Below are positions 3,126 to 27,711 of a DNA stretch of 32,000 nt, piece by piece (the first letter of the stretch is position 1; the number at the start of each line of letters is the position of its first letter). The stretch is from Candidatus Saccharimonadota bacterium (GTDB lineage: Bacteria > Patescibacteriota > Saccharimonadia > Saccharimonadales > Saccharimonadaceae), in contig JBDSDX010000001.1 of the NCBI GenBank assembly GCA_039920285.1, positions 510,001-542,000 on the forward strand. The letters are read 5' to 3'. Under the pieces are notes generated by a model, which was not told where the DNA came from, made no database searches, and worked only from the letters and a program-made list of their open reading frames with translations. Both the position numbers and the translations under genes were made by a program.

Positions 3126-3141
3126 CAGGGTCCCCCTAACC

Positions 3142-3150
3142 TGATATAAT
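3142..3150 (+). promoter_or_regulatory. extended -10 promoter (TGaTATAAT) for tRNA-Leu(CAG)
   Basis: cTGaTATAAT lies 28 nt upstream of the tRNA 5' end. Confidence 0.45.
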
Positions 3151-3177
3151 TCCGATTGTACGTGAAAGCAGCAATAT

Positions 3178-3264
3178 GCGCGCGTGGCGGAATTGGTAGA
3201 CGCGCTAGCTTCAGGTGCTAGTGTCAGCAATGACGTGGAGGTTCAAGTCCTCTCGCGCGCACCA
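3178..3264 (+). tRNA. tRNA-Leu (anticodon CAG), type II long variable arm, CCA encoded
   Basis: GCGCGCGTGGCGGAATTGGTAGACGCGCTAGCTTCAGGTGCTAGTGTCAGCAATGACGTGGAGGTTCAAGTCCTCTCGCGCGCACCA; anticodon loop TTCAGGT. Confidence 0.9.
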
Positions 3265-3269
3265 CGATA

Positions 3270-3299
3270 AGAACCCAAGAAATTGGGTTTTTATTTTTT
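3270..3299. terminator. bidirectional terminator (tRNA-Leu on the plus strand, 3291-4019 gene on the minus strand)
   Basis: AACCCAA-gaaa-TTGGGTT followed by TTTATTTTTT; overlaps the stop codon of the minus-strand gene. Confidence 0.6.
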
Positions 3300-4019
3300 G
3301 CGATCGGCAAATGTTTGCAGTGTAATGTGAGATAACTTGAGAAATGTTGATACATCGAGGCGTTTCATGAGAGTTATAATGCTCGGGAGCTGCATCTTTA
3401 TGAGTTTCCAATGGTCTCGTATAGAAGGATTAAACTCAACAAGTCCGTTTGCGGCGTCGCTCTTCATATCAAATAAGGTATCCATCGAGTTTGCGTAAGT
3501 GGTGAGGAGAGTTAAATAGTCATTAAATTCAGTAACATCCTGATCAGCTGCATGTTCTGGAGGGATAGTAACGAATCGACTTGTCACTCGGCCTTCTGCA
3601 AGTGCGACGAGACCGAGAGACTCTATATTAGACGCCTGTCGTGATCGTTCTCCAAGAAGTGCAATAGTATGTGCGTGAGTAGCGAATTCTTCTAATTTAT
3701 CCCGGCCGTCATGGATCATCACCTGTCGTAGCTCCACGAGAGAAGTGATCACATTTGGATCGATTGAGGAGTCAGCTTCACCCGTGACCATGAAATTGAT
3801 CGCTTTATCGTATGCTTTGAGACGTGTCTCTGGAGATTCTTCGCTGTCGAGAATCATGTCGAGATTGAACATAACAGAGAACACTGTTTGCCATTGTTGG
3901 CGTTGTTGCTCACTGATTTCAAGATTGAATAGTCTTGAAGCTATCGTGTGCAACATGTTATCACCGATACGATAACGATGTTTGTATTCGGAGTCGGGCA
4001 CGATATGTTCAGCGGTCAT
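3291..4019 (-). CDS. hypothetical all-helical protein with two DxxxD motifs (possible class I isoprenoid-synthase-like fold)
   Basis: 242 aa. DMILD at residues 54-58 and DTLFD at 180-184, about 126 aa apart. No other recognisable motif. Confidence 0.55.
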   Translation of the reverse strand: MTAEHIVPDSEYKHRYRIGDNMLHTIASRLFNLEISEQQRQQWQTVFSVMFNLDMILDSEESPETRLKAYDKAINFMVTGEADSSIDPNVITSLVELRQVMIHDGRDKLEEFATHAHTIALLGERSRQASNIESLGLVALAEGRVTSRFVTIPPEHAADQDVTEFNDYLTLLTTYANSMDTLFDMKSDAANGLVEFNPSIRDHWKLIKMQLPSIITLMKRLDVSTFLKLSHITLQTFADRKK

Positions 4020-4031
4020 TGATGACAGTAT

Positions 4032-4724
4032 GTGACATTATCGATGAATTACAAGCATGACCACGATACTGATCATTTAGTCGATTTGACCTCTATACTC
4101 TATACTGAAGTGATGCAAGAAGAAATTATTGGCGTGGGACCTCATCCTGAACCGTGGCCAACCGGTTCGCAGTACGATCGTATGCTGCTCAAAAATGGCG
4201 ATCAACGAAATGTTCTCGATAAATACCACTACTGGACGGTTGCTGCAATCAAAGAAGATCTCGACACAACTCGTGTAGATCTTGAGATTGCGATCGAAAA
4301 TCTGCAACGGGACTACAATATGGGTACGATTGTTCGATGTGCGAACGCTTTCAATATTAAGAAAGTCCACATTATTGGCCGCAAACAATGGAACAAACGC
4401 GGTGCGATGGTGACTGACCTTTACATGAATATTCAATATCATGATGACGTGAAGGCATTCCAAGCTGTTATGGAGAGAAGTAAACGTGAGATTATCGCGG
4501 TTGATATCGTCGAGGGGGCTAAAAACCTTTCTGAAACAACACTTCCACCGAATGCTGTACTTATCTTTGGTGCTGAAGGTCCTGGCCTGAGCAAAGAACT
4601 TCTTAATGTCGCGACTCAAACGGTCATGATTGAACAACTCGGTTCAACTCGTTCTATGAACGTTGGCGTGGCTGCAGGCATCGCTATGTACACTTGGGTT
4701 CAACAAAACTTGTTGACCAAATAA
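4032..4724 (+). CDS. SpoU/TrmH-family RNA 2'-O-methyltransferase
   Basis: C-terminal SPOUT motifs NMGTIVRCANAFN, LIFGAEGPGLS, IEQLGSTRSMNVGVAAGIAMY. Start is uncertain: GTG 4032, ATG 4044, or ATG 4113 (6 nt after a TATACT box). Confidence 0.8.
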   Translation: MTLSMNYKHDHDTDHLVDLTSILYTEVMQEEIIGVGPHPEPWPTGSQYDRMLLKNGDQRNVLDKYHYWTVAAIKEDLDTTRVDLEIAIENLQRDYNMGTIVRCANAFNIKKVHIIGRKQWNKRGAMVTDLYMNIQYHDDVKAFQAVMERSKREIIAVDIVEGAKNLSETTLPPNAVLIFGAEGPGLSKELLNVATQTVMIEQLGSTRSMNVGVAAGIAMYTWVQQNLLTK

Positions 4725-4825
4725 CATAAGCGTGTCATAATACCGACATGAACTACTACCGAACTCACCATGTACATATGTCGCCGGAGCGAATCGGTTA
4801 GTTAATTTTGTCTTAAATCATACTT

Positions 4826-4856
4826 ACGCCGAACATCGCTTCGGCGTATTTATTTA
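4826..4856 (+). terminator. rho-independent terminator
   Basis: CGCCGAA-catcgc-TTCGGCG followed by TATTTATTT. Confidence 0.7.
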
Positions 4857-4887
4857 CACGAGTCACCAATCATCAGATACCAATAAA

Positions 4888-4896
4888 TGATACAAT
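4888..4896 (+). promoter_or_regulatory. extended -10 promoter (TGaTACAAT) for hisS
   Basis: Lies 20 nt upstream of ATG 4916, with a GAAAGGA SD in between. Confidence 0.45.
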
Positions 4897-4915
4897 TTAA
4901 GAAAGGAATATAACA

Positions 4916-6205
4916 ATGACACTCTCATCACAACCATATAAAGGTACGCGCGACTATTACCCAGAAGATAAACGGGTTCAAAACTACATCTTTAATACTT
5001 GGCGATCTATCGTCGAACGTTTTGGATATGAGGAATACGGTGCACCGATTCTTGAACCACTCGATATCTATGCTGCAAAGAGCGGGCAAGAACTGGTTAA
5101 TGAACAAACGTACGTGTTTACTGATCGTGGCGGTCGGACAGTGGCGATTCGTCCTGAAATGACCCCAACGATTAGTCGTATGGTGGCAGCGCGTCGTCAA
5201 GAGTTGCCGTATCCAGCTCGATTGTACTCAATCGCTAACTTCATGCGGTACGAGCGTCCTCAGCGTGGTCGTGAGCGAGAGTTTTGGCAACTCAACGTCG
5301 ATATTTTCGGCGTTGAGGATACCAAGGCGGATATCGAGATCTTGACGATTGCAGATGCGATTTTAAAAGAGTTCGGTGCCAAGCCAACCGATTATGTTAT
5401 TCGCATTAACAATCGGAAGTTAATTAACTATATGATGGTTCAATATCTTGGACTCGATGAGGTTCAATCGCAGCAGATGATCAAATTGTTTGATCGCCGT
5501 GACAAGATTACCGAAAGTGACTTCGACGAGCAAACAACTCTGATTTTCGGTGAAACAAACGACGAACGTACTGAAAAAGTAAAACAGTTGATTGATGCGA
5601 AAAGTATTGACGAACTCCCCGAAGAAGTGAAGAAAGCGGAAGCGGTGAGTGAGTTGAGTGTCGTGTTCGATAGTCTAAAGAAAGCCGGTGTGACTGAAGC
5701 GGTCTTCGATGCGACGTTGATGCGGGGACTTGATTACTACACTGGCACGGTCTTTGAAGTATTTGATACACACCCTGATAATAATCGAGCACTATTCGGA
5801 GGCGGTCGTTATGACGGTCTCGTCGGTATGTTTGGCGCTGAACCTATCTCGGCGGTTGGTTTTGCCCCAGGTAATACAATGATGGAAAACTTCTTAGCTG
5901 TTCGCGATCTGCTCCCCAAGGCATCTTCAACGAGTCAGGTATATATTGTCGTGATTGACGATGCACTCGACACTGCAAACATGTTAGCGACAACGCTTCG
6001 TAGCGGGGGCATAAATACTGAAGTCGATATTACAAACCGCAAACTTGATAAACAAATTAAAACAGTACTAAAAAAGAATATCCCATACGTTATTTTTGTC
6101 GGTCCAAACGACGTTGATGCGAGTGAATTCTCTCTGAAGAATATTGCAACGGAACAAGAAGAAAAGCTGTCGATCGATGCGATTATTGAACGACTTTCGA
6201 AGTAG
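4916..6205 (+). CDS. hisS: histidine--tRNA ligase
   Basis: 429 aa. Class II HisRS signatures KGTRDYYPED, RYERPQRGREREFWQ, GGGRYDGLVGMFG, plus a C-terminal anticodon-binding domain. Confidence 0.95.
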   Translation: MTLSSQPYKGTRDYYPEDKRVQNYIFNTWRSIVERFGYEEYGAPILEPLDIYAAKSGQELVNEQTYVFTDRGGRTVAIRPEMTPTISRMVAARRQELPYPARLYSIANFMRYERPQRGREREFWQLNVDIFGVEDTKADIEILTIADAILKEFGAKPTDYVIRINNRKLINYMMVQYLGLDEVQSQQMIKLFDRRDKITESDFDEQTTLIFGETNDERTEKVKQLIDAKSIDELPEEVKKAEAVSELSVVFDSLKKAGVTEAVFDATLMRGLDYYTGTVFEVFDTHPDNNRALFGGGRYDGLVGMFGAEPISAVGFAPGNTMMENFLAVRDLLPKASSTSQVYIVVIDDALDTANMLATTLRSGGINTEVDITNRKLDKQIKTVLKKNIPYVIFVGPNDVDASEFSLKNIATEQEEKLSIDAIIERLSK

Positions 6206-6229
6206 GTCAATTTGCGGACGATTTCGACC

Positions 6230-6240
6230 TCTGTTATAAT
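6230..6240 (+). promoter_or_regulatory. extended -10 promoter TCTGTTATAAT for tig
   Basis: The TATAAT box ends 7 nt before ATG 6248. Confidence 0.55.
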
Positions 6241-6247
6241 TGGTCTA

Positions 6248-7552
6248 ATGGAAACTACACGAAAAAACCTATCTGACACAAAAGTATTACTGACAATTAC
6301 AGTGAGTAAAAAAGACCTCGTCGCGGCCGAGCAAGCTGCCCTTAAAACATTGAGTCGAACAGTGAAAGTTGCTGGCTTCCGCGCCGGTAAAGTACCTGCG
6401 GGCGTGGCTGCAAAACACGTCGATCCAGCAGCATTGCAAGACGAAAGTTTAAACAACGCTCTTAACAATGCAGTGACTGAGGCCTTCATTACAGAAAAGA
6501 TTCAACCACTTGACCGTCCTTCGGTTGAAGTACAAAAATTTGTTCCTGGTGAACTCCTTGAATTTACTGCTGAAGTTGAAATTGTTCCTAAGGTAAAACT
6601 TGGTGACTATAAACACCTTAAGGCGAAACAAGAACCTGCAAAGGTGACTGACATAGATGTCGAGGAAATCATTGAACGTATGCGCACGGGCTTTGCAACT
6701 CGTGAGGAAGTTGATCGTGGCGCAAAAGTTGGTGATGAAATCCTCATGGATTTTGTTGGTAAAAAAGAAGACGTTGCTTTTGACGGTGGAACAGCAAAAG
6801 ACTATACACTTGCGATTGGCTCTGGCCAATTTATCCCTGGTTTTGAAGAAGGTATCGTTGGTCACAAAGCTGGTGAAGAATTTGATATCGACCTTGATTT
6901 CCCAGCTGACTACCATGCGAAAGAACTCGCTGGTACGAAGGTTGTCTTCTCTGTCACACTAAAAAAGGTCCTCGAACCTAAACTACCTGAGGTCGATAAC
7001 GACTTTGCTGCTAAAGCGGGCCCATTTAAAACAGTCGCTGAACTAAAGGCTGACATCACACGCGAAATCAGTTCCCAAAAAGATCGTGAAGCCCACGAGA
7101 AGTATAAAGACGCACTCATTACGGAATTAGTTGAGAAGAGCACGGTTCCAACACCAGACATCCTGGTTGAAGACCACATGCGCTCAATCGAGCAAGACTT
7201 TGAACGAAACCTTGCGTACCAAGGTCTTAATCTGGATAGCTATTTTGTTACGAACAAATTTAAAGATGCAGATGACTGGCGTGATAAAGAAGTCCGTCCA
7301 ACGGCAACTCGTCGCGTTCAGGCTGGGCTTGTCTTGGCTGAATTAACCAGCGCCGAAAACGTTAAAGCTACTGATGCTGAAGTTGACGAACATGTCGAAG
7401 TTCATAAGAAGCAGTATGCTAATAACGAAGACGCTTTGAAGCAATTCGAAACAGCTGAAGTTCGCCGTGATATTGCCAATCATTTCTTGACTGAAAAAAC
7501 GATTGAACACTTGATCACACTCAATGGCGGCACCGCCAGCCACTCTCACTAG
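6248..7552 (+). CDS. tig: trigger factor
   Basis: N-terminal ribosome-binding GFRAGKVP motif, central FKBP-type PPIase region (GQFIPGFEEGIVGHKAGEEF), C-terminal arm domain. The TTG 6212 extension was rejected because the promoter lies inside it. Confidence 0.9.
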   Translation: METTRKNLSDTKVLLTITVSKKDLVAAEQAALKTLSRTVKVAGFRAGKVPAGVAAKHVDPAALQDESLNNALNNAVTEAFITEKIQPLDRPSVEVQKFVPGELLEFTAEVEIVPKVKLGDYKHLKAKQEPAKVTDIDVEEIIERMRTGFATREEVDRGAKVGDEILMDFVGKKEDVAFDGGTAKDYTLAIGSGQFIPGFEEGIVGHKAGEEFDIDLDFPADYHAKELAGTKVVFSVTLKKVLEPKLPEVDNDFAAKAGPFKTVAELKADITREISSQKDREAHEKYKDALITELVEKSTVPTPDILVEDHMRSIEQDFERNLAYQGLNLDSYFVTNKFKDADDWRDKEVRPTATRRVQAGLVLAELTSAENVKATDAEVDEHVEVHKKQYANNEDALKQFETAEVRRDIANHFLTEKTIEHLITLNGGTASHSH

Positions 7553-7572
7553 AGTAGGCACAAAGCAAATTG

Positions 7573-7600
7573 GCACTCACTTGCAACGAGTGCTAATTTT
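7573..7600 (+). terminator. weak hairpin terminator after tig
   Basis: GCACTC-acttgcaac-GAGTGC followed by TAATTTTAT. Confidence 0.35.
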
Positions 7601-7603
7601 ATA

Positions 7604-7609
7604 TACAAT
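7604..7609 (+). promoter_or_regulatory. -10 box TACAAT for clpP (leaderless geometry)
   Basis: The box ends 6 nt before ATG 7616; no SD. Confidence 0.4.
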
Positions 7610-7615
7610 AGATGT

Positions 7616-8212
7616 ATGAATAAGCCATCGAGTTACTTAGTACCAACAGTGATCGAAAAATCTTACGACGGGGAGCGGGCTTTTGATATCTACTCACGTC
7701 TCTTAAAAGAACGAATCATCTTTCTCAATGAAGACGTTAATGAACATACTGCGAGCCTGATCGTGGCACAACTTTTGTTCCTTGCCTACGAGGACCCGAA
7801 GAAAGACATCAAGCTGTATATCAATAGTCCTGGCGGGAGTGTCTATGACGGGCTTGCGATCTATGACACGATCCAGTTCATCTCACCGGATGTGCAGACG
7901 ATAGGTATTGGACTTCAGGCGAGTATGGGCGCTTTCTTACTTTCGAGTGGTACTAAAGGTAAGCGTTACGCGCTCCCAAACAGCCGTATCATGATTCACC
8001 AACCATCAAGTGGTACTCAAGGAAAGATTACTGACCAGGAGATCACTCTTAAAGAAGGAATTTTCCTTAAGCAACGACTCAATGAAATTCTTGCTAAGAA
8101 TACCGGACAGAAGTTATCTAAGATTGAAAAAGATGCTGATCGTGATTTCTGGATGAGCGCACAGGAGTCGAAAGACTACGGTCTTATTGATGACGTTATC
8201 GCCAAAGCATAG
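7616..8212 (+). CDS. clpP: ATP-dependent Clp protease proteolytic subunit
   Basis: 198 aa. [18 protein letters not shown], catalytic Ser in GLQASMGAF, His in IMIHQP, Asp in DRDFWMSA. Confidence 0.95.
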
Positions 8213-8248
8213 ACTTTTCGCTCGTATTATTGTATAATCTTCATCAAT

Positions 8249-8902
8249 ATGACAGATTTTGAAATTGGACGTATTGAACCCACAGAGCACAATGCGAAGC
8301 TGATCCAGTATATGTCTTTGGTTGACATGCAAATGGGCGGCCATCCTGATGCTTTGAAAGAAGCAAATCCTAATAACGCTGATAAAGTGAAGGCGCAAGC
8401 TGATAAGTTAGATCAGCATCCTGAGCGATATGCCGGAGCTTTCGCTGATGACGAACTTGTCGGATTCATTAAATATGATGATTGGCGCGTTGATCTTGAT
8501 ATGCCGTTTACGCACGGTACAGAACGCATAGATTCACTCATTCGTCGCTATGTACGACACGACTATAGCGTAAAAGGAAATCCTTTAGGAATTATGGGAC
8601 TAGTTTCGGATCCACGCATTGTCGATCGCTACCCTGAAGTAGCTGAGTCAGATATTGACGAGATGCTCGGGCAGTTAACCGATCAAGCAGTCGATGCAGC
8701 ACATTCGGGACGATATCCTCGTGAGATTCGTGTCCCGCATCACTATAATGACCCAGCGCGACGTGCAACCGCATCTCGTAGGTTTGAAACAACTGGGCAG
8801 TCTGCCGTTGTGTTCGGCATGAAACAAGAACTCTTTAGTCGCCCAGCAGTTGCCACAGAGTTAGAGCGATTTGCAGCTGCTCAAGACGAATTTGATAGTT
8901 AG
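8249..8902 (+). CDS. hypothetical protein (217 aa)
   Basis: Clean ORF occupying the position where clpX is often found. TGTATAAT (8231-8238) lies 10 nt upstream; no SD. No confident motif. Confidence 0.6.
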   Translation: MTDFEIGRIEPTEHNAKLIQYMSLVDMQMGGHPDALKEANPNNADKVKAQADKLDQHPERYAGAFADDELVGFIKYDDWRVDLDMPFTHGTERIDSLIRRYVRHDYSVKGNPLGIMGLVSDPRIVDRYPEVAESDIDEMLGQLTDQAVDAAHSGRYPREIRVPHHYNDPARRATASRRFETTGQSAVVFGMKQELFSRPAVATELERFAAAQDEFDS

Positions 8903-16390: not shown

Positions 16391-16398
16391 GGTTGACT

Positions 16399-17082
16399 AT
16401 GCAAGCTGGTGAAAAACTAAAAGAATTCGTGAGAGAATTCGATCCCTTTGATGAGAGACAGACTCCAACTGACGATCAACTCATCGATATCATTGAACTC
16501 TTCCTTGAGCTAAACAAAGGATTACTCTTGAGGTTCAGCTCGGATGTTCGCATGATGCCTGTATCAGATGAGCACGGCACTGCAACAGCGTTCGAAGTTT
16601 CACTCAAAGTACCCGCACGTGATGGGTCATATCTTCATGTTGTAGTGTTCGGCCACAATAGTGACGATAGCTTGGTTGATACAAATATTTCTGTCATCGA
16701 ACACCTACCTGGCGGCAATTATCAAACCGGACATCTCTACTCATTTTCATACGGAAATGTTGTCCGTTCCGATTTGGGTCTCGATCAAACGGACGACCCT
16801 GACGAGCAAAGGACTCACTTTAGCCTGTTTACTCTTCATGAGTCTCGAGACTTTCTTCGAGAACTCGAACAGAGTGAAGACCCGGAAGAAGTGAGAGTTG
16901 CATTAGAAACGAGAGCACAGCTCGACGATGACGAGAAAAACCTTGATCTTGCAGAACAGATGGGATACAACGTTCAGCCTGTTGATAAAGAAGAAATCGA
17001 AAAATTAGTACTGTTGTTATTTGATGCTGAATCTTTCCCACCCTCGATGTTTCCACATGCAGGTAATGACAGCATTTACTAA
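16399..17082 (+). CDS. hypothetical acidic protein (227 aa)
   Basis: Clean ORF between rpoC and rpsL; ATG 16399 is preferred over TTG 16393. D/E-rich; no recognised motif. Confidence 0.6.
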   Translation: MQAGEKLKEFVREFDPFDERQTPTDDQLIDIIELFLELNKGLLLRFSSDVRMMPVSDEHGTATAFEVSLKVPARDGSYLHVVVFGHNSDDSLVDTNISVIEHLPGGNYQTGHLYSFSYGNVVRSDLGLDQTDDPDEQRTHFSLFTLHESRDFLRELEQSEDPEEVRVALETRAQLDDDEKNLDLAEQMGYNVQPVDKEEIEKLVLLLFDAESFPPSMFPHAGNDSIY

Positions 17083-18232: not shown

Positions 18233-18316
18233 AAAGATAAATGGGAGCAAAAACAAACATGACTGACATTTTCGATTTCTGCTTTAACGTTGGCCGAAAG
18301 GTCATCGGGGACTAGT

Positions 18317-19057
18317 ATGTCTGGAGAATGGATTGAACCGAACTTTGCCGGACCAACACCATTTCTCCCCCCTGAAGCAGTGAGACTTCACGATCTTCGT
18401 AAGGACGGACGCAAGCCAACGCCTGTTGATACGCGTACTAAGCTCGTTGATAGGCGAGCACTTATGATTATGGCGAGGGAGAGCGTTGTTCCTGGCTACG
18501 ACTGGCGCGCACCTGAGGTAAAGAAAAAGACCTCCAACCACCATCTTCACTGGCCTCACTTCCAAGATGCCAATAGCTTTCGTAATTCAGGGTCACGTAG
18601 AACAAACATCGCACCGATTGCACACAATTGGATTCACGAGTTGACAGTACCACCAGATGCGGTTGGGGAAGATGTCGAACATGATTATACGGAGGCGCAG
18701 GAGTATGCGATTGAACTAAGAACAATTGCCAACCATCCATTATTCCTGGGTCGTGAAACAGTACGAATTCATAAAGAAGTCTCTGCGGCTTTTCAAAACG
18801 AATACTTCGTTCTCTCTAAACAAGAAGTACGTCAAGATATAAAGCTCGATTTGGCATTTGCGTTCGATAGTTTTGCTGCTGTATTTGAAAGAGCACGTCA
18901 GGCCCCTATAGAATTCCAAGTTATTGATTATGAGGCAAGGCAACTTCGGGGAGTCCATGACATGATGAGTATTGCTCGTGAAATTGGCGCGACAATTCGA
19001 CGCGAGGCAGAATTGGACCAAAAGATTCTCGATGGAGCTGTCGATCTTGCTGCATAA
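18317..19057 (+). CDS. hypothetical protein with HH-x20-N-x5-HxxxH signature (possible His-Me finger / HNH-like nuclease)
   Basis: ATG 18317 with a GGGGA SD is preferred over TTG 18290. NHHLHWP...RRTNIAPIAHNWIHE is encoded at 18536-18640. Helical C-terminal half. Confidence 0.6.
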   Translation: MSGEWIEPNFAGPTPFLPPEAVRLHDLRKDGRKPTPVDTRTKLVDRRALMIMARESVVPGYDWRAPEVKKKTSNHHLHWPHFQDANSFRNSGSRRTNIAPIAHNWIHELTVPPDAVGEDVEHDYTEAQEYAIELRTIANHPLFLGRETVRIHKEVSAAFQNEYFVLSKQEVRQDIKLDLAFAFDSFAAVFERARQAPIEFQVIDYEARQLRGVHDMMSIAREIGATIRREAELDQKILDGAVDLAA

Positions 19058-19059
19058 GG

Positions 19060-19068
19060 TGTTATAAT
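19060..19068 (+). promoter_or_regulatory. extended -10 promoter TGTTATAAT
   Basis: Starts 3 nt after the stop of the 18317-19057 gene and lies 31 nt before ATG 19100. Confidence 0.45.
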
Positions 19069-19099
19069 TCCTAAATACTAATTTTCCCGAGAGACTGTC

Positions 19100-20119
19100 A
19101 TGGAATTCACCAAAGTAGACCGACTGTTCACCCCACTTCGCCCCGAAATAGCTGCTAAAATCCAAGCGATATCTGAAAAGCTGACGGACATCTATGATGA
19201 TGACCAAGCAAAGACTCTTCTTGTTGAACTGAATCATGAACTTACTAAACATAAACTAGTGGGTGATACAGTCCAAGTGAGTTCTGCCGATATGGTGTGG
19301 GGTAGTTATGGACTTGATGGAAACTTTATTCCGGTTCTAGATGTGGCGTTACTAGAGAAGCATATTATAGCGGGGACATTCTTGGGTGTCGGCGAACTCG
19401 ATATTGACGGCCTCCGGACGGTGGTCTACAACCTACAGGTAGAAATCGACGATGAAGCAACGAGTTCTTTTGTCATCAGTGCGCCAATTGAAACATCTCA
19501 TCTGGCAGTTGAGGTTGAGATACCGGCTTCAGTGCAGACAGATAACGAGCTTGCTCAACACTTTCAGGTATTGGCGGAAATTGAAGATCCTGCGTTCAGA
19601 GAACTCATAAAAGCGTTTATGGATGTACTTGATGATAACGACATGCTTAATGCATCAATGTTGAGACATCTCGGTGTTCTCGTAACTGAGATGCTTGCCC
19701 ATAGCGAAGTACAAGACAATGATCGACGCCAAGACGCGATAAGTAATATTCTTGCTGAAATACTGAATGATGACGGAATATATACCATTGTTGGACAGGA
19801 ATTTATGATTGATAGACAGTCTCCCAAAGGAACATTGTTTCTTAAGTCGTTCGAAGCGACAGGTGGTGTAGCAGGTGTTTCGCTTGTCAATGATTATACG
19901 ACCAACGAGCTAAGTATTGATACTTTCAAATCGACCTTTCAACCGGCAGCTATATTCCAGGACGGAAGTAATCGACGCTACACTATTCCATTAAAGTATA
20001 TTACGACGTTTGATATGCTTGAAGGTCCTGATATGTCACCTGATCCCGATGGCTGTCGGGCAAGTATCGGTCGATTCCTTATGCAAAACCCTCAAGTATT
20101 GAAAGCAATGAAATGGTAG
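19100..20119 (+). CDS. hypothetical acidic protein (339 aa)
   Basis: Clean ORF, GAGAGA SD-like sequence upstream. 7-nt overlap (ATGGTAG) with the next ORF. Confidence 0.65.
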   Translation: MEFTKVDRLFTPLRPEIAAKIQAISEKLTDIYDDDQAKTLLVELNHELTKHKLVGDTVQVSSADMVWGSYGLDGNFIPVLDVALLEKHIIAGTFLGVGELDIDGLRTVVYNLQVEIDDEATSSFVISAPIETSHLAVEVEIPASVQTDNELAQHFQVLAEIEDPAFRELIKAFMDVLDDNDMLNASMLRHLGVLVTEMLAHSEVQDNDRRQDAISNILAEILNDDGIYTIVGQEFMIDRQSPKGTLFLKSFEATGGVAGVSLVNDYTTNELSIDTFKSTFQPAAIFQDGSNRRYTIPLKYITTFDMLEGPDMSPDPDGCRASIGRFLMQNPQVLKAMKW

Positions 20120-21195
20120 ACTCTGATTCATTCCCTCCAACTCCTGAAAAAGGTCAACCGGTCGAACTCCAAGCCGCATTCACCTCAGAAAGAGAGTTTG
20201 AAGACTACTTTAAGACAGTTCAGTATCGCATCGCTCAGGTGAGAGGTACGGTTTTTACCGATGAAATCGAAGCTGAAAGAGCACTCGACGAACACGTCGA
20301 TTCGATCAATGATGAAATATTTGATCATCCTGAATGGTTTAAAATCCCTGTAGTTATAACTGGTGAGGGTATATCTGAACCAAACGCTGATTCAAGTATC
20401 TCGAATCTTACTGATGGCCGTAGGGCAATTGTGATAGCCTTTGACCCTGAACAAGGCTACGCTGCAACCCCGAGCTTCGAAACAAAAACAGGATATATAG
20501 AAGGGGTGTACGGCCAAGTCATTAGTCTTTTTGATGACAATGAGATTCCGACAGGTCAGCATGCGGTGAATGTCCGCTATATCGTCCGAGCAAAGTATCC
20601 AGAAACGATAGATATAACATTGGGTGGTCCAAATATCGCTGCTCTTCGAGTTGAGGCGTATCCTGCTTATTTTGCTCACATCGATATGGTTGAAATCGAA
20701 ACTGAAGCACTGAATAAACAGAGACAAGCTGAGGTATTGACGAATGACATGGTCCTGAGGGGTATTACGGGAAGTGTCTTTCAGCATAAACTTACAAAAG
20801 TTGAAGAGTCATTGAATAACGACACTCCATTTCAATTTATGACGTTTGAAAATATCGAAGATTTCCGTTCAGTTGGGACACTTGGCGCTGTGATTGCAAG
20901 AAAAGGTCCAGACTATGCTCGAACAGTGAAGGAAGCAATGCTAAACGCACTTCGCGTTGGACGTCCACTTAAAGTAGATGGAACATGTCTCCTTCCAAGA
21001 ATTGGTGACGATCCTATTTTAGTGACGGCAGAGTTAAAAGGCGAGATATACGACATTATGCTTCCTGAGTCGCCAGAAGATACAATCGCACCAACACTCG
21101 TCTTGAGCTGCCTTATAGAAACAGGAGAAGGCCAGCCGCCAAAAGAGGTATTGTACTTCTTTGATTTCGAGCAGATTCACGCTCTGAAGTTCTAG
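20113..21195 (+). CDS. hypothetical protein (360 aa)
   Basis: Clean ORF translationally coupled to 19100-20119. Stop lies 15 nt before the fusA promoter motif. Confidence 0.65.
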   Translation: MVDSDSFPPTPEKGQPVELQAAFTSEREFEDYFKTVQYRIAQVRGTVFTDEIEAERALDEHVDSINDEIFDHPEWFKIPVVITGEGISEPNADSSISNLTDGRRAIVIAFDPEQGYAATPSFETKTGYIEGVYGQVISLFDDNEIPTGQHAVNVRYIVRAKYPETIDITLGGPNIAALRVEAYPAYFAHIDMVEIETEALNKQRQAEVLTNDMVLRGITGSVFQHKLTKVEESLNNDTPFQFMTFENIEDFRSVGTLGAVIARKGPDYARTVKEAMLNALRVGRPLKVDGTCLLPRIGDDPILVTAELKGEIYDIMLPESPEDTIAPTLVLSCLIETGEGQPPKEVLYFFDFEQIHALKF

Positions 21196-21281: not shown

Positions 21282-23381
21282 ATGGCCCAGAAAACTGTCG
21301 AACTTAAGGACTTCCGCAACGTCGGAATTATTGCCCACATTGACGCCGGTAAAACGACGACTACTGAGGGTATCTTGTACCGTACGGGTATCAACCACAA
21401 AATTGGTGTGGTGAAAGGGACCGGCTCAGACGACGGAACAACCACTGACTGGATGGCTCAAGAAAAAGAACGCGGTATCACGATTACTTCTGCAGCTGTC
21501 ACCGCACAGTGGAAGGGTCATACCATCAACATTATCGACACCCCTGGTCACATTGACTTTACGGTTGAAGTTGAGCGTTCACTTCGTGTACTCGACGGTG
21601 CAGTAACAATCTTTGACGGGAAGATGGGCGTTGAAGCACAATCTGAAACTGTCTGGCGCCAAGCCAACAAGTATGGCGTGCCTCGTATCTGTTTCATCAA
21701 CAAGATCAACCAAATTGGTGGTGACTTCTACAAATCTCTCGACTCTATTCACCTTCGTCTTTCAAAGCATGCACTTCCGATTCACCTTCCAATTGGATTT
21801 GAAAAAGAAATTAATGGACTTGTCGACCTTGTCGATATGAAAGCATACACCTACGAAGACTACAAAGACCACGAACTTGTTGTCGGTGAGATTCCTGCTG
21901 ACATGCTTGAGAAAGCTAAAAATGCTCGTAGCCTTTTGGTTGAAGCAGCCGTTGAAGCTGAAGATGAGCTTTTCGAACGTTTTCTTAACGAAGGCGAAGA
22001 ATCAATTTCTGTTGAAGACTTGAAGCGTGGACTTCGCAAGCGTGTTCTTGCTGGTGATTTCTATCTTGTCACAGGTGGTGATGGACGTGGTGTGATTGTA
22101 GAGAAGGTCCTTGACCTTATTAACGACTACCTCCCATCTCCTCTTGATGTTGGTGCTGTTCAGGCAACGAACCCTAAGACTGGTGAAGTTGTTGAGCGCA
22201 AGCCATCAGATGATGAACCACTTTCTGCACTTGCATTTAAGATTGCTACTGACCCATTTGTGGGACGTTTGATCTTCGTCCGTGTCTATAGCGGTAAACT
22301 TACCGCTGGAAGCTATGTTTTGAACACCACAACTGGTAATAAAGAACGTATCGGCCGTGTCGTTCGTATGCACGCAGACAAGCGTGAAGACATTGAAATG
22401 ATTGGTGCAGGTGACATTGCTGCTGTTGTTGGACTTAAAGATACCTTTACTGGTCACACACTCGCTGATCCAGCTCACCCTGTACTACTTGAATCAATCG
22501 AATTTCCAGATCCTCCAGTTTCGATTGCTGTTGAGCCTAAAACCAAGGCCGATCAAGAAAAAATGGGTGTTGCCTTGCAGCGACTCGCAGAAGAAGACCC
22601 GACATTCCGTATTCACACAGATGATGAAACCGGACAAACGATCATGTCAGGTATGGGTGAACTTCACCTTGAAATTCTTGTCGACCGTATGAAACGTGAA
22701 TTCAACGTTGAAGCAAACGTCGGTGAACCACAAGTAGCCTTCCGTGAAGCCATTCGTGGAACTGTCGAAGCACAAGGTAAGCACGCCAAGCAATCTGGTG
22801 GACGTGGTCAATACGGTGATGTTTGGATTCGTTTCGAGCCGACAGAATCAGGTATTGGTTTCGAATTCGTCGATGCTGTAAAGGGTGGCGTGGTTCCAAA
22901 GGAATACATCAAACCTGTTGAGAAGGGTATTCGTGAAACACTTGAAGGCGGTGTCATCGCCGGCTATCCAATGATTGGTGTCAAAGCCACTCTTTACGAT
23001 GGTAGTTACCACGATGTGGACTCAAGCGAACTTGCCTTTAACCTTGCCGGAGTCATTGCTGTAAAAGAAGGTATTCCAAAGGCGAAACCCGTTATTCTTG
23101 AACCTATCATGAAAGTTGAAGTATCAACTCCTGAAGAGTTTATGGGTGATATCATCGGTGACCTTAACGGTCGCCGTGGACGTATCGACGCAATGGAAGA
23201 TATCCCAGGCGGTGCTAAACTGATCCGTGCCTTTGTCCCTCTTTCGAACCTCTTTGGATACACGAACGATATTCGTTCGATGAGCCAAGGACGTGCAGCA
23301 TCAACAATGGAGGTCGCTCAATATGAGGACGTACCACCAAATGTTCAAGCTGAGATCATTGCCAAGCGAACCAACGGCTAG
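21282..23381 (+). CDS. fusA: elongation factor G
   Basis: 699 aa. G1 AHIDAGKTT, DTPGHIDF, NKIN, and domain IV/V motifs. Confidence 0.97.
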   Translation: MAQKTVELKDFRNVGIIAHIDAGKTTTTEGILYRTGINHKIGVVKGTGSDDGTTTDWMAQEKERGITITSAAVTAQWKGHTINIIDTPGHIDFTVEVERSLRVLDGAVTIFDGKMGVEAQSETVWRQANKYGVPRICFINKINQIGGDFYKSLDSIHLRLSKHALPIHLPIGFEKEINGLVDLVDMKAYTYEDYKDHELVVGEIPADMLEKAKNARSLLVEAAVEAEDELFERFLNEGEESISVEDLKRGLRKRVLAGDFYLVTGGDGRGVIVEKVLDLINDYLPSPLDVGAVQATNPKTGEVVERKPSDDEPLSALAFKIATDPFVGRLIFVRVYSGKLTAGSYVLNTTTGNKERIGRVVRMHADKREDIEMIGAGDIAAVVGLKDTFTGHTLADPAHPVLLESIEFPDPPVSIAVEPKTKADQEKMGVALQRLAEEDPTFRIHTDDETGQTIMSGMGELHLEILVDRMKREFNVEANVGEPQVAFREAIRGTVEAQGKHAKQSGGRGQYGDVWIRFEPTESGIGFEFVDAVKGGVVPKEYIKPVEKGIRETLEGGVIAGYPMIGVKATLYDGSYHDVDSSELAFNLAGVIAVKEGIPKAKPVILEPIMKVEVSTPEEFMGDIIGDLNGRRGRIDAMEDIPGGAKLIRAFVPLSNLFGYTNDIRSMSQGRAASTMEVAQYEDVPPNVQAEIIAKRTNG

Positions 23382-23390
23382 CAACATTCA

Positions 23391-23420
23391 CCGAGGCATC
23401 AGTGCCTCGGTTTTTGTTTA
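23391..23420 (+). terminator. rho-independent terminator after fusA
   Basis: CCGAGGCA-tcag-TGCCTCGG followed by TTTTTGTTT. Confidence 0.8.
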
Positions 23421-23443: not shown

Positions 23444-23449
23444 TACAAT
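23444..23449 (+). promoter_or_regulatory. -10 box TACAAT (leaderless geometry)
   Basis: The box ends 6 nt before ATG 23456. Confidence 0.4.
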
Positions 23450-23455
23450 ATAGGT

Positions 23456-24097
23456 ATGAAAGCGATGAGTTATCTGAGGCCACGAGAAAAGTTGCAACAA
23501 AAAGGCGCAACTGTACTTACGAACGCTGAATTACTCCAGGTGATGATAGGGAGCGGCAATGCGCAGGCAAGCGTCAGCCGTATAGCGAAGCGTTCTATGA
23601 AGCAGTTATTGCGATATGGCAATGAGATTACGTATGATCAGTTGCACGAAGTAGCCGGGTTGGGTCCAGCTCGTGCCTGTCAGATACTAGCGGGTTTTGA
23701 GTTAGCAAGTCGCTATCCGGTTCGTCGGCAACAAATCGTGATTGATACGAGAGAAAAGGTACTCGCGTTAGTGGCGGATATCCGTAGTGCAACATTAGAC
23801 AGGTTGGATTACATTACGATTGACGGTGCAAAACGACTGATCGCAAAGAGGTCAGTAGCAATTGTAGAAACAGCACATCCTTCGACCATGCTGCGACAGA
23901 TATTTTCTGACGTCGTTACCGATAAAGCAGTGAATCTTTCGGTTGTGATCGGCTCATCAGATCGAGAACTTGAACCCTCTATGTTTGATTTAAGTCTTGG
24001 TCACGACTTAAAGATAATGGCTCAGTTGTTCAATGTCGGTATTCAGGACTACGTAATCATTAACAATAGTGGTCATAGAACCTTAGAGCTATCATGA
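23456..24097 (+). CDS. RadC-like protein with degenerate JAB/MPN (JAMM) active site
   Basis: N-terminal RadC pattern LTNAELLQVMIGSG and HhH EVAGLGPARACQILAGFEL. In the C-terminal JAB region the canonical HNHPSG is IGSSDR, PRE is LRQ and DH is DY. Confidence 0.7.
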   Translation: MKAMSYLRPREKLQQKGATVLTNAELLQVMIGSGNAQASVSRIAKRSMKQLLRYGNEITYDQLHEVAGLGPARACQILAGFELASRYPVRRQQIVIDTREKVLALVADIRSATLDRLDYITIDGAKRLIAKRSVAIVETAHPSTMLRQIFSDVVTDKAVNLSVVIGSSDRELEPSMFDLSLGHDLKIMAQLFNVGIQDYVIINNSGHRTLELS

Positions 24098-24597
24098 CAG
24101 AGTGTATTGAGGAGCTTGTCTATAGTTGGTACGAACGGTCACAGATTGACTACAGTGACCTATACGCTCGACTGTATATTTCGTATAATGCATGGTTTCG
24201 TAAAGTTACTCGAACGAGCAATGATAGTCAGGCTTTAGAACTGCTCAAGCGGCGCTTCATCATCTGGGATGATTATATACATAACCGGACAATGCGAGAT
24301 CTAACAGAGGTGATATCACGTATTTGCCGCCACACTGAAACAAATGTGAAAGATACAAGCGATTGGAGAGGACTCATCTCATTTTGGTATCAGGTACGCT
24401 GTGATCTATTTCACGGCACTATAAAGCCAGATAACGAAATTATTCGACTCGCGTATGAATCATTGGTTATATTTATGGATGAAATCGTTTCACGCATGCA
24501 TCAGTCATTTCCGTCTGGATACTTTTTCGCCCACGATCTATGGAGTGTCGATATGATGCGTGTTTTACCGAGTGAAACGCTTTACATAGCGACCTAA
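24094..24597 (+). CDS. hypothetical protein with Rx4H motif (HEPN-like, possible RNase)
   Basis: ATGA overlap with the RadC-like gene. [11 protein letters not shown] (R102-H107, nt 24397-24414). Helical. Stop lies 2 nt before the tuf promoter motif. Confidence 0.6.
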
Positions 24598-24599
24598 AA

Positions 24600-24609
24600 T
24601 CTGTATAAT
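24600..24609 (+). promoter_or_regulatory. extended -10 promoter TCTGTATAAT for tuf
   Basis: One-base-shorter variant of the recurrent motif. ~58-nt leader with a GGAGA SD. Confidence 0.5.
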
Positions 24610-24673
24610 CACACCTATACGTCGTGAGGTGGGTTTATCCTCATGCGAAATAATTAATGGAGAAACTAATTCA

Positions 24674-25855
24674 ATGGCAGATTTCGATCGAACCAAACCT
24701 CACGTTAACGTTGGTACAATGGGCCACGTTGACCACGGAAAAACTACTCTAACTGCAGCAATTACAGCTGTTCTCGCGAAGCGACTTCCTAGCGATGTCA
24801 ACAAAAAAGTTGACTACGCAATGATCGACAACGCACCTGAAGAGCGCGCACGTGGTATCACGATCGCTACCTCTCACCAGGAATATGAATCAGAAAACCG
24901 TCACTACGCACACGTCGACATGCCAGGACACGCTGACTATGTTAAAAACATGATCACCGGTGCTGCGCAAATTGATGGAGCAATCCTTGTGGTTGCTGCA
25001 AACGATGGTCCTTTGCCACAAACTCGTGAGCACGTTCTTCTTGCTCACCAAGTCGGTGTGCCTAAGATTCTTGTTTTCCTAAACAAGATGGACCTTGCAG
25101 ATCCTGAACTTGTTGAACTCGTTGAAATGGACATTCGTGAACTGCTCGCTAAGAACGGTTATGACGAAGATGCTCCTATTATCAAGGGCTCAGCAACGAA
25201 GGCACTTGAAGGTGATGAAGCCTCTGAAGACGCTATTATGGAACTGGTTTCTGCGCTTGATACGTACTTCCCAGAACCTACTCGCGACCTCGACAAGCCA
25301 TTCCTTATGCCAGTTGAAGACGTCTTCTCAATTAAGGGACGTGGAACTGTTGCAACAGGACGTATCGAAACTGGTGTTATCAACATCAACGACCCCGTTG
25401 AAATCGTTGGTATCAAAGCGACTCAAACTTCTACCGTTACTGGTATCGAAGCCTTCAAGAAGAACCTCGACCGTGGACAAGCTGGTGACAACGCCGGACT
25501 TCTCCTCCGTGGTATCGAACGCGAAGACATCGAACGTGGTCAGGTTATCGTGAAACCTGGTTCACTAACTCCTCACACTGAATTCGAAGCTGAAGTCTAC
25601 ATCCTCAAGAAAGAGGAAGGTGGTCGTCACACTCCATTCAGCAAGGGTTACAAACCTCAGTTTTACTTCCGTACTACTGATGTAACCGGTGAAGTTGAAC
25701 TGCCAGCTGACAAGGAACTTGTGATCCCTGGCGACACAGTCACTTTCATCGTGAAGTTGCTTGCACCTATCGCTATGGAGCAAGGTTTGAACTTTGCTAT
25801 CCGTGAAGGTGGCAAAACTGTTGGTGCCGGAGTGGTTACCAAAGTTGTTAAATAA
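24674..25855 (+). CDS. tuf: elongation factor Tu
   Basis: [26 protein letters not shown]-terminus at ATG 24674, DMPGH, NKMD, SALKALEG-like, GGRHTPF. Confidence 0.97.
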
Positions 25856-25976: not shown

Positions 25977-26393
25977 TTAGGGGAGACTCATGAGTCTCAC
26001 GGTGGCAGTTCCGTTATGGTAGAACTCTGTCGTGTGCTCAGAAGTTGCTCGAATGCTTTGAGCAAATGATACTTCAACCGTGAAAGTGAGGCCACCTACT
26101 TGGTTTTTCAGTTTCTCGGTGAGTTGACGAGCGATAGCTACGCTGCCAGGTCGTTCTTCCCATTCTGGATTGATACAGGCGGTTGCGCTGACGAGGTTGT
26201 CGGCTGAGCGATAACTGATACGGAGCCCTCGAATGAGTGCACCCGCAAGCTTATTAACGCTCATGCCGCGTTGTTTCTCTTCGAGCTTGAGAGCTCGAGT
26301 GACTTCGTCAGGCGTTGGATCTGGAAGATCGATTGGTGCGGTGACAGGTCGTCGCGCTTTGTGGCGCAACAACATATCTCTCTCATTGAACAT
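25977..26393 (-). CDS. hypothetical protein (138 aa), possible N-terminal ribbon-helix-helix
   Basis: AAGAAAGG SD 5 nt before ATG 26393. The segment PVTAPIDLP..EVTRALKLEEKQRGMSVNKLAGALIRGL resembles the RHH strand-helix-helix pattern (weak). Confidence 0.5.
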   Translation of the reverse strand: MFNERDMLLRHKARRPVTAPIDLPDPTPDEVTRALKLEEKQRGMSVNKLAGALIRGLRISYRSADNLVSATACINPEWEERPGSVAIARQLTEKLKNQVGGLTFTVEVSFAQSIRATSEHTTEFYHNGTATVRLMSLP

Positions 26394-27039: not shown

Positions 27040-27711
27040 ATGATGACGCGTCGAGGGTTTACAATTGTTGAGCTATTAGTTGTCATTGTTGTTATTGGCA
27101 TTTTGGCAAGTATCGGCATCGTCAGTTATGGTGCAATCATACAGAAATCTGATGAAGCAACCATAAAAACAGGCATAGGCTACCAGTCACAACTGGTTCG
27201 TAAGTACTTTGCTGACAATAACAAATATCCCGCAACGTTGGCTGACACTGGTCAAACAGATAGTTCAACACCAAATATCACCTATGTTTATGTCTACGAT
27301 GCGGTCGCTAAAGATTATTGCCTCTCGGGTAAAAGTAATCGCAATAGCTCACCCTCATTTAAAGTAAATGCTGCGGGTGACGTTACTGCTGGTGAATGCT
27401 CGATACCTGCGCCTAACTATACGTATCCGACTTTGACACAAGATTTCCATCCATGTTACCCAGCATTTCCTAACTACTCGTATACATACAGTGCGACAGG
27501 AGATGGAACTATCACCTATGCTGTGCAGAGTGGAGCACTTCCCCCTGCTTTCACTCTAAATAGTGCCACAGGAAATCTTTCAGGAGTAGTTGCGAGTCCT
27601 GTCGCAAACAGCGGAACGACCTACAATTTTGTTATTGCAGCAACGAATAGTGGTGGATCAGCGACACAATCTGTCACACTGACGCTCTACAAAATGGTAT
27701 GTCCACCGTAG
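27040..27711 (+). CDS. type IV pilin-like protein with C-terminal putative Ig-like (He_PIG / cadherin-like) domain
   Basis: Prepilin signal MMTRRG|FTIVELLVVIVVIGILA with Glu at +5. Cys pair DYC...GEC. C-terminal TITYAVQSGALPPAFTLNSATGNLSGVVA..TYNFVIAATNSGGSATQSVTLTL. Confidence 0.8.
   Translation: MMTRRGFTIVELLVVIVVIGILASIGIVSYGAIIQKSDEATIKTGIGYQSQLVRKYFADNNKYPATLADTGQTDSSTPNITYVYVYDAVAKDYCLSGKSNRNSSPSFKVNAAGDVTAGECSIPAPNYTYPTLTQDFHPCYPAFPNYSYTYSATGDGTITYAVQSGALPPAFTLNSATGNLSGVVASPVANSGTTYNFVIAATNSGGSATQSVTLTLYKMVCPP

Follow-up and report, generated by a model that had tools for sequence, protein, structure and literature searches.

A RadC-family pseudoenzyme and a HEPN-like protein encoded as a fixed pair upstream of the EF-Tu gene in Saccharibacteria

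What are two small overlapping genes doing between the genes of the elongation factors EF-G (fusA) and EF-Tu (tuf) of a Candidatus Saccharimonadota bacterium? They lie in a 32,000-nt stretch of DNA from a member of the Saccharimonadaceae (the window; contig JBDSDX010000001.1, positions 510,001–542,000), whose own positions serve as coordinates below. According to the open reading frame (ORF) map, fusA (21282–23381) is followed on the forward strand by gene 1 (23456–24097), which encodes a RadC-family pseudoenzyme of 213 amino acids recognised with Pfam, AlphaFold2 (AF2) and Foldseek. Then come gene 2 (24094–24597), which encodes a HEPN-like protein of 167 amino acids and overlaps gene 1 through an ATGA, and tuf (24674–25855). 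RadC itself is near-universal in bacteria. An earlier interpretation made from the letters of this DNA (the sequence-only reading) had given the same ORFs, coordinates and overlap, and had taken the pair for a catalytically degenerate RadC coupled to a HEPN protein and inserted between both factor genes. The reading preferred here, with a probability of about one half, is that the two genes form a domesticated, toxin–antitoxin-like regulated RNase module, in which the N-terminal domain of the RadC-like protein controls the nuclease.

The first line of evidence is the association of both genes. In the seven homolog clusters examined (7/7), a radC-like gene for 214–216 amino acids lies directly upstream, with overlap, and tuf lies downstream. 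A scan of 185,579 species genomes returned 16 carriers, all of them Saccharibacteria-type, among which are Candidatus Microsaccharimonas spp. and the cultivated strain TM7i, whose genome is complete (CP075337.1). In 16 out of 16 the genes follow one another as radC-like, HEPN-like, tuf, rpsJ, and the order of the first three is also kept across ~70 distinct metagenome loci. At the loci found from the HEPN side, the RadC-like gene is always the upstream one and the overlap measures 1–11 nt. The metagenome search from the RadC side comprises 80 loci, where 52 RadC copies are coupled to a HEPN-like gene, 18 are uncoupled with room for one on the contig, and 10 are on contigs too short to judge. 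All 52 coupled copies are degenerate, whereas all 18 uncoupled copies are canonical, with neither fusA nor tuf adjoining them. The linkage of the RadC-like and HEPN-like genes is absolute, and their order recurs in every related locus examined, far beyond chance. Two small, adjacent, co-directional and overlapping genes with 100% co-occurrence are also what is seen in type II-like toxin–antitoxin architectures. The sequence-only reading had proposed such a survey of co-occurrence, which finds the pair linked everywhere the family occurs; none of the results named as speaking against that reading (a match of gene 2 to a non-HEPN family, variable R102 and H107, or a standard single-copy RadC of degenerate form without linkage to gene 2) was obtained.

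The pair belongs with tuf rather than with fusA. The gap between the HEPN-like stop codon and the tuf ATG is 45–160 nt in every lineage except one, while fusA is separated from the radC-like gene by 62 to 3648 nt, some lineages holding extra genes in between. Because the former is near-constant and the latter varies so widely, the conserved unit is radC-like/HEPN-like/tuf, tuf being the constant downstream neighbour and fusA a usual, non-obligatory upstream one.

Several loci of the survey deserve a comment of their own. One metagenome-assembled genome (MAG), GCA_028286445.1 (loci L001 and L008), holds two divergent fusA–pair–tuf regions. Paralogous copies were considered in this case, but the two copies occupy separate and divergent fusA...tuf regions, which makes a mixed bin probable. 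In bins labelled 'Parcubacteria' and 'Dongiaceae' (L029 and L036), the tuf gene of the contig is 91–94% identical to that of the window, suggesting misbinning or mislabelling. Finally, one coupled locus (L047) has a HEPN-like ORF without N-terminus and another (L101) a RadC-like protein with an unrecognisable C-terminal half; assembly error or real decay is possible in both.

Gene 1 holds both domains that identify the RadC family, a UPF0758_N domain with a helix-hairpin-helix (HhH) (PF20582) and a RadC-type JAB domain (PF04002). The UPF0758_N domain (23477–23680), with the HhH GLGPARACQIL at residues 68–78, is the most conserved part of the gene and scores 60.3 bits in Pfam (1.9e-16; cut-off 27.1), and the JAB domain scores 32.5 bits (9.4e-8; cut-off 22.1). 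On the NCBIfam RadC models (TIGR00608 / NF000642) the protein reaches 92 bits, under the cut-offs of 133.85 and 180. A protein 100% identical to it, from a Candidatus Saccharimonadales MAG, is annotated as 'UPF0758 domain-containing protein'. Aligned with canonical RadCs and with RadC 2QLC, gene 1 shows a degenerate JAB/MPN domain (23750–24073), in which the Glu of PRE is replaced by Q148 (LRQ), IGSSDR occupies the HNHPSG position (residues 165–170, nt 23948–23965) and DY replaces DH; only PSMFD (the PS..D segment) is kept. The JAMM/MPN+ signature (E ... HxH ... S..D) is not present in gene 1, and its HxH is missing in 52/52 coupled homologs. On the contrary, 18/18 uncoupled homologs retain HPRE...HNHPSG...S..D...DH. 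Throughout the coupled family both zinc-binding His residues are gone, the Glu and DH positions vary freely, and 21 of the 23 invariant columns fall within residues 21–86.

Despite this loss, the fold seems to be retained. Foldseek places RadC 2QLC from Chlorobium tepidum as the top match of the AF2 model of gene 1 (predicted local distance difference test, pLDDT, 86.7), with an E-value of 4e-7, a template-modelling (TM) score of 0.77–0.82 and a root-mean-square deviation of 2.1–2.6 Å. Further matches are other JAB and deaminase folds, including Rpn8-Rpn11 and BRCC36 complex entries. The N-terminal/HhH region, the replaced JAMM positions with the surviving PS..D segment, and the retained fold of a degenerate RadC had been claimed by the sequence-only reading, and these claims are borne out. 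As judged from alignments and model, gene 1 is a true pseudo-RadC and not a gene wreck. It also stands apart within its family, with ~80 clusters of close relatives (E<1e-30), where the organism-named ones are all Saccharibacteria, followed by a sharp gap before canonical RadC appears at E>1e-12. Among the 80 loci retained, the contigs that are near-complete (715, 724 and 845 kb) showed no second, canonical RadC, which is weak evidence, whole genomes being unscanned.

Two variants of these genes are recorded here on their own account. A sub-clade of the coupled RadC-like ORFs (L039, L041, L042, L044, L045, L048 and L053-L055) has 'IGHxxH', rich in His, where HNHPSG formerly stood, and a metal site could be partly re-formed there, although this sequence is not conserved family-wide. 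In locus L069 (positions 2925-8507 of that locus), a catalytically intact canonical RadC relative is found between a Fic/DOC gene and the hsdR/hsdM genes of a type I restriction-modification system; therefore, canonical RadC of that type can also be associated with defence islands.

Which portion of gene 1 is relevant to gene 2 is suggested by distant relatives of the pair. One of them, a HEPN-like protein of 159 amino acids, is encoded in overlap with an upstream gene whose 88-residue product consists of UPF0758_N only, and has the same tuf promoter downstream. Another, of 152 amino acids, follows with a 4-nt overlap a gene for UPF0758_N plus an unrecognisable C-terminal region. Because these relatives pair with the N-domain without a recognisable JAB, the RadC N-terminal UPF0758_N domain, and not the dead JAB, appears to be the constant and functional partner of the HEPN-like gene, with the JAB domain decaying. 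This aspect had been overlooked by the sequence-only reading.

As for gene 2, direct searches of Pfam, NCBIfam, PADLOC and PDB sequences returned noise only. Conservation within its own family is more informative. There are 21 close clusters, the two with organism names being Saccharibacteria MAGs, and 36 positions are invariant in 22 close homologs, including R102, C103, H107 and G108. R-C-x3-H-G is present in 70/70 distinct coupled homologs. An exhaustive profile search against 1.84 billion representatives raised the number of relatives to 443 (at 50% identity), and nearly all full-length sequences among the best 148 of these 443 show [WIL]Y.[VI]R[CN].[LIV][FV]HG. In a 58-sequence alignment of diverse members spanning the superfamily, Y99, R102 and H107 are the sole invariant columns. 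R102 (codon 24397-24399) and H107 (codon 24412-24414) enclose R-C-D-L-F-H (24397–24414), the predicted RNase active-site motif Rx4H, so designated by its conservation and by its alignment with the Rx4H of ApeA HEPN proteins. The R102-x4-H107 pointed out earlier is accordingly invariant at every depth of the family; of the three Cys residues also pointed out, only C103 is conserved. A sizeable family lacking a Pfam or NCBIfam model is now defined, with links to the uncharacterised Dazbog protein DzbB and to type I restriction-modification operons.

HEPN proteins are defined by an Rx4-6H motif where helix-3 ends, and by an E-x3-[KR] in helix-2 (PMC3710099). The AF2 model of gene 2 is all-helical (pLDDT 80), with a helix at 91-107 that ends with R102...H107, a loop at 108-114, a helix at 115-137 and helical inserts at 44-80, a predicted secondary structure that fits this definition. 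N32-x3-R36 (24187–24201), invariant in the 22 close homologs and located in a predicted helix at 20-39, is a plausible counterpart of the helix-2 motif; the correspondence is positional, and some superfamily members (e.g., P0201) hold E-x3-K at this place. The C-terminal tail carries D-x-W-x-x-D-M-x-R (24535–24561), of which D148, W150, D153 and R156 are invariant in the same 22 homologs. This tail is specific to the RadC-coupled Saccharibacterial branch, and is missing from the branch associated with restriction-modification.

Remote homology points in the same direction. The best PDB matches of the superfamily profile, at a sub-threshold E-value of 0.028, are ApeA HEPN defence proteins (PF18739; PDB 9HXB and related), in an alignment that spans helix-3, the aligned Rx4H, the loop and helix-4. 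With the ApeA fragment of this match as target, hhalign gives 85% probability over 41 columns. Single members give weak Pfam matches below the cut-offs, to HEPN_Apea (0.041) and RiboL-PSP (0.0024). HEPN_Apea is the joint most frequent weak family (three members), and the remaining weak matches besides HEPN_RiboL-PSP are unrelated. The only PADLOC families matched by superfamily members are DzbB (19/58, best 6e-6), Cas13-ApeA (0.002) and Cas13a (0.0025), and, in the search of 1.8 billion proteins, these matching members are significantly linked to the gene 2 family (1e-15 to 3e-9). Every remote match that aligns on the Rx4H motif is thus a HEPN-type RNase, weakly so, as all of them are sub-threshold or reached via transitivity. 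Taken with the motif and the model, gene 2 is HEPN-like and very probably works in the manner of a HEPN RNase.

The other branch of this superfamily was placed in its genomic context through three relatives of ~180 amino acids, in which the tail motif is missing. The first belongs to a type I restriction-modification operon, where its gene overlaps hsdM on one side and hsdS on the other. Neighbours of the second are hsdS and hsdR, together with genes for a SLFN/AlbA_2 protein and an AAA_13 ATPase; the third has no obvious partner. Two of the three examined lie, therefore, within type I restriction-modification operons or defence islands, and no RadC neighbour was seen beside any of them. Many HEPN families are embedded in restriction-modification operons (PMC3710099).

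The evolution of the pair is that of a core element rather than that of a cassette. In related loci, EF-Tu and EF-G are 87-96% and 82-95% identical to the window proteins, and the RadC-like and HEPN-like proteins 30-58% and 37-57%. The distance matrices of the two small proteins are correlated (Pearson 0.67; 0.60 controlling for tuf). For the few computable locus pairs, the ratio of non-synonymous to synonymous substitution rates (dN/dS) is 0.03-0.15; synonymous sites are saturated in most locus pairs, and codon-position identities were used there instead. In the HEPN-like genes of L072 and L078, second codon positions are 99% identical and third positions 49%. Both genes are under strong purifying selection, because dN/dS is very low and second codon positions are far more conserved than third ones. 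The GC content of the pair equals that of the flanks, with no compositional anomaly, and no integrase, repeats or tRNA appeared among the genes called around the pair in the seven homolog-cluster loci. A patchy distribution in variable neighbourhoods, as in mobile toxin–antitoxin or defence systems, is not observed, since the pair is always directly upstream of tuf. It is a fixed feature of a whole Saccharimonadaceae-type clade, in a pattern consistent with vertical inheritance. In a separate observation, tuf third codon positions are ~92% identical where those of adjacent genes are 42-49% (L072 versus L078 and other locus pairs), so that tuf synonymous sites are either extraordinarily constrained or homogenised in this clade.

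The pair also seems to be expressed on its own account. A strong intrinsic terminator of fusA, with a 9-bp GC-rich stem, a 4-nt loop and a T-run (23390–23419, or 23390–23411 in a narrower delimitation, forward strand), separates fusA from the pair. A hairpin followed by a T-run is found after fusA in nearly all related loci, with stems of different sequence, and an Rfam scan of the region gave only a sub-threshold chance match, on the terminator hairpin. A -10-like hexamer, TACAAT (23444–23449, forward strand), precedes the ATG of gene 1 by exactly 6 nt, and TAnnnT is located exactly 6 nt before the in-frame start codon of the RadC-like gene in 59/66 distinct related loci. This constant spacing confirms the start codon at 23456. 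A Shine-Dalgarno sequence was not found before the RadC-like start, either in the window or in the related loci. A -10 hexamer exactly 6 nt from the start without a Shine-Dalgarno sequence indicates a leaderless mRNA, and the signals together indicate that the pair has its own putative promoter, of leaderless type, after the fusA terminator.

Downstream, the tuf promoter (TTTACA-17-TATAAT with TG upstream of the -10; 24581–24609, forward strand) straddles the gene 2 stop codon, its -35 element lying inside the last gene 2 codons. The consensus TTTAC-17-TGTATAAT is conserved in 57 distinct loci, beginning within the final codons of gene 2 or directly behind them, and no terminator was found between gene 2 and tuf. 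That gene 2 reads straight into the promoter of tuf had been suggested by the sequence-only reading and agrees with this layout. The tuf leader (~60 nt; 24581-24673 including the promoter) is highly conserved in the 57 related loci, where it starts with ATACG, forms a hairpin and ends with AGGAG; RNAalifold finds weak covariation in it, with one pair showing a compensatory change. At the clpP start (7616), TACAAT likewise precedes the ATG by exactly 6 nt, and leaderless-type promoters may be common in this genome.

These data can be accommodated in the following model. Gene 1 and gene 2 would be transcribed as one small operon from the leaderless-type promoter just past the fusA terminator, would probably be translationally coupled through their overlapping frames, and transcription would continue, with no terminator, into the tuf promoter region. 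The product of gene 2 is most likely a HEPN-superfamily endoribonuclease that needs no metal, its predicted catalytic residues being R102 and H107. The family from which it would derive shares homology with the DzbB C-terminal region, and the other branch of that family occupies type I restriction-modification operons as well as defence islands. The RadC-like and HEPN-like proteins are expected to form a complex, where the former, mainly through UPF0758_N, would restrain, target or switch on the RNase. This control could be responsive to a nucleic-acid ligand, an idea supported by two analogies: ApeA, whose HEPN RNase activity, directed at the anticodon loops of tRNAs, is triggered by deoxydinucleotides as a DNA-derived ligand, and the Dazbog defence system, whose DUF262 partner senses DNA. 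An architecture like that of toxin–antitoxin or abortive infection systems is proposed because of the upstream partner and the downstream Rx4H protein, their overlapping frames, their absolute co-occurrence and the relatives in defence loci. The term domesticated follows from the core-gene behaviour of the pair, namely one fixed locus, a very low dN/dS and its persistence in genomes of about 0.8 Mb. An originally defence-type arrangement would thereby have become a fixed, vertically inherited core pair in the clade.

Several observations weigh against this model. No curated HEPN model in Pfam is matched at threshold by gene 2 or its family, and Foldseek searches of the gene 2 model against PDB and BFVD gave no HEPN or other structure with E<1. 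Foldseek is weak on small helical bundles, and the empty search lowers the HEPN claim without excluding it. The hhalign probability is partly circular, as the ApeA fragment had been picked from the earlier match. The residue after the Arg is a Cys, invariant in the coupled branch, instead of the N, D or H usual in HEPN proteins; Asn is found there in part of the wider family (RNNLFHG). The fixed locus, the vertical inheritance and the very low dN/dS are atypical for toxin–antitoxin or defence cassettes. Moreover, a dzbB deletion was reported as not transformable, 'possibly due to toxicity', so that DzbB may restrain its partner and not act as the effector. The HEPN identity advanced by the sequence-only reading stands as far as the motif, its predicted position at the end of a helix and the remote matches go, and lacks a match at family threshold or a HEPN structure from Foldseek. 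The label 'HEPN-like' is preferred because remote homology is consistent but weak, the Foldseek search is empty and the Arg is followed by Cys.

Other explanations share part of this evidence. The nearest competitor, clearly less probable than the regulated module but still to be taken seriously, is a housekeeping role. Here, the HEPN-like nuclease and the RadC-like protein, as a nucleic-acid-binding adaptor, would act in maturation or quality control of rRNA, tRNA or mRNA, the nuclease not being a toxin held in check, or they would carry out a programmed translational shut-down in the host-free state. A place beside tuf that is constant in ~70 distinct loci can be read as serving the translation apparatus, vertical inheritance and purifying selection as strong as in core genes would be expected of it in genomes of roughly 0.8 Mb, and eukaryotic HEPN nucleases such as Las1 process rRNA (PMC3710099). 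However, the closest relatives of gene 2 resemble DzbB and ApeA, and are found in defence islands and restriction-modification operons. The pair is also served by a promoter of its own, with a terminator insulating it from fusA. Position is weak evidence as well, because in this clade the same ribosomal super-operon hosts unrelated lineage-specific genes (a pilin, VanY, RCC1 and three unknown genes).

A less likely explanation, and a rather doubtful one, removes the nuclease altogether. Gene 2 would be a helical accessory subunit of a RadC-type DNA function, such as uptake, recombination or repair, with the Arg and His binding a ligand or DNA and the RadC-like HhH as the core. It would agree with the absence of a significant HEPN match or a structural match for gene 2, with the RadC N-domain being the most conserved element and common to canonical RadC, and with the historical association of RadC with repair and competence (PMC3239186). 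Contrary to this explanation, Y, R and H are the sole invariants in a superfamily mostly without a RadC partner, which points to catalysis intrinsic to gene 2. The remote matches aligned on the motif are all HEPN RNases, and the JAB catalytic site, presumed to be the enzymatic core of RadC, is the very part that is decaying or lost. By far the least probable is the recent landing of a mobile toxin–antitoxin or defence cassette between fusA and tuf, as the word 'inserted' in the sequence-only reading implied. Two small overlapping genes, with relatives of gene 2 in defence contexts, would suit it. The same locus is nevertheless occupied in 16 species-level genomes and ~70 metagenome loci, with EF-G identity down to 82%, pair and flanks diverge together, and GC content and gene calls nearby show nothing foreign. 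Fixed synteny and normal composition largely refute a mobile insertion, and with it that part of the earlier claim; a clade-wide feature under purifying selection, with its own promoter, takes its place.

Turning back to the regulated RNase module, its components can be compared with systems already described. Dazbog is a two-gene anti-phage system of the abortive infection type, whose other component is nucleic-acid-sensing (DUF262), and what matches the superfamily members in the PADLOC DzbB model is its C-terminal part (~130 positions), over the R[CN]xxxHG region. Unlike the window pair, the DzbB model has 341 positions, with extra N-terminal sequence, and its partner is a DUF262 protein (DzbA) instead of a RadC-like one. 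Dazbog is a patchy defence-island system, and gene 2 itself has no direct DzbB match, its link being transitive through profile-search relatives. ApeA differs in being a single protein of ~590 amino acids with its own sensor domain and large ring oligomers, and in holding RN where the gene 2 family of the window holds RC. The small HEPN toxins of two-gene toxin–antitoxin systems (HEPN-MNT, or HepT-MntA) and PrrC resemble gene 2 as small Rx4H proteins encoded beside, and overlapping with, a partner that keeps them inactive, as the RadC-like protein may do for gene 2. Like the other branch of the gene 2 family, PrrC (EcoprrI) is encoded between hsdM and hsdS of a type I operon (Table 1 of PMC3710099). 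However, gene 2 and its coupled relatives have a UPF0758_N or dead RadC partner where those systems use a nucleotidyltransferase or a restriction-modification complex, and the locus is fixed and vertically inherited.

On the RadC side, canonical members (YicR; 2QLC; PF04002 + PF20582) and gene 1 have in common the two-domain architecture, the PREKL, LIGSG and HhH motifs and the JAB fold. Gene 1 differs by the lack of the JAMM Glu, HxH and DH, and by being always coupled to a HEPN-like gene, as its canonical relatives never are. Inactive MPN- scaffolds (Rpn8, CSN6 and KIAA0157) and the RadC-JAB domains of fusobacterial DinG fusions likewise hold a JAB fold without zinc ligands as a binding or scaffold module, and the inactive domains of these DinG helicase fusions, the only earlier instance of inactive RadC JAB domains to have been noted, have been proposed to bind nucleic acid/DNA (PMC3239186). 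Their partner, however, is an active JAB or a helicase, and not a HEPN-like protein as for gene 1, in whose relatives the JAB domain can also be missing entirely.

HEPN nucleases controlled by a partner are an already known kind of system. What is new is a pseudo-RadC or UPF0758_N as the type of partner, an unannotated HEPN-like family linked to DzbB, and its fixation in a core operon upstream of EF-Tu. Literature searches returned nothing linking RadC or UPF0758 with HEPN, and nothing relevant for RadC and Saccharibacteria. The function of RadC has been disputed for decades, for example under the title 'RadC, a misleading name?', taken here from its citation in PMC3239186. The strict coupling of the N-domain to a predicted RNase, while the JAB decays, separates the roles of both RadC domains and suggests a regulatory or sensing N-domain, a rare functional clue on a long-enigmatic family. 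It also provides a case in which a gene of defence type has become a fixed core gene next to that of EF-Tu, in reduced genomes of the candidate phyla radiation (CPR). These predictions are testable, as the cultivated TM7i, with its complete genome, carries the pair.

A more ambitious form of the regulated module may be considered, though as a joint proposal it is rather improbable. UPF0758_N would be a nucleic-acid-sensing regulator, and a defence-type HEPN RNase captured by a decaying RadC would have become an essential, host-cycle-linked translation switch expressed from a leaderless mRNA beside tuf, acting, for example, by cleavage of tRNA or rRNA during the host-free stage. If true, this would offer a first mechanistic handle on what RadC senses, and ultrasmall episymbionts would be shown to possess core regulatory RNases of a new class.

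Other genes of the window are also worth recording. Three consecutive forward-strand genes (18290-21195; 255, 339 and 360 amino acids) between rpsG and fusA have no Pfam match and are kept in related Saccharibacteria loci, with up to 69%, 56% and 34% identity. A type IV pilin-like gene (27040-27711, forward strand), with an N-terminal methylation motif and a He_PIG immunoglobulin (Ig) domain, lies between rpsJ and rplC, a site that holds other inserts, such as VanY, in related loci. Two further ORFs have no Pfam match, one of 138 amino acids on the reverse strand between tuf and rpsJ (25977-26393) and one of 229 amino acids on the forward strand between rpoC and rpsL (16393-17082).

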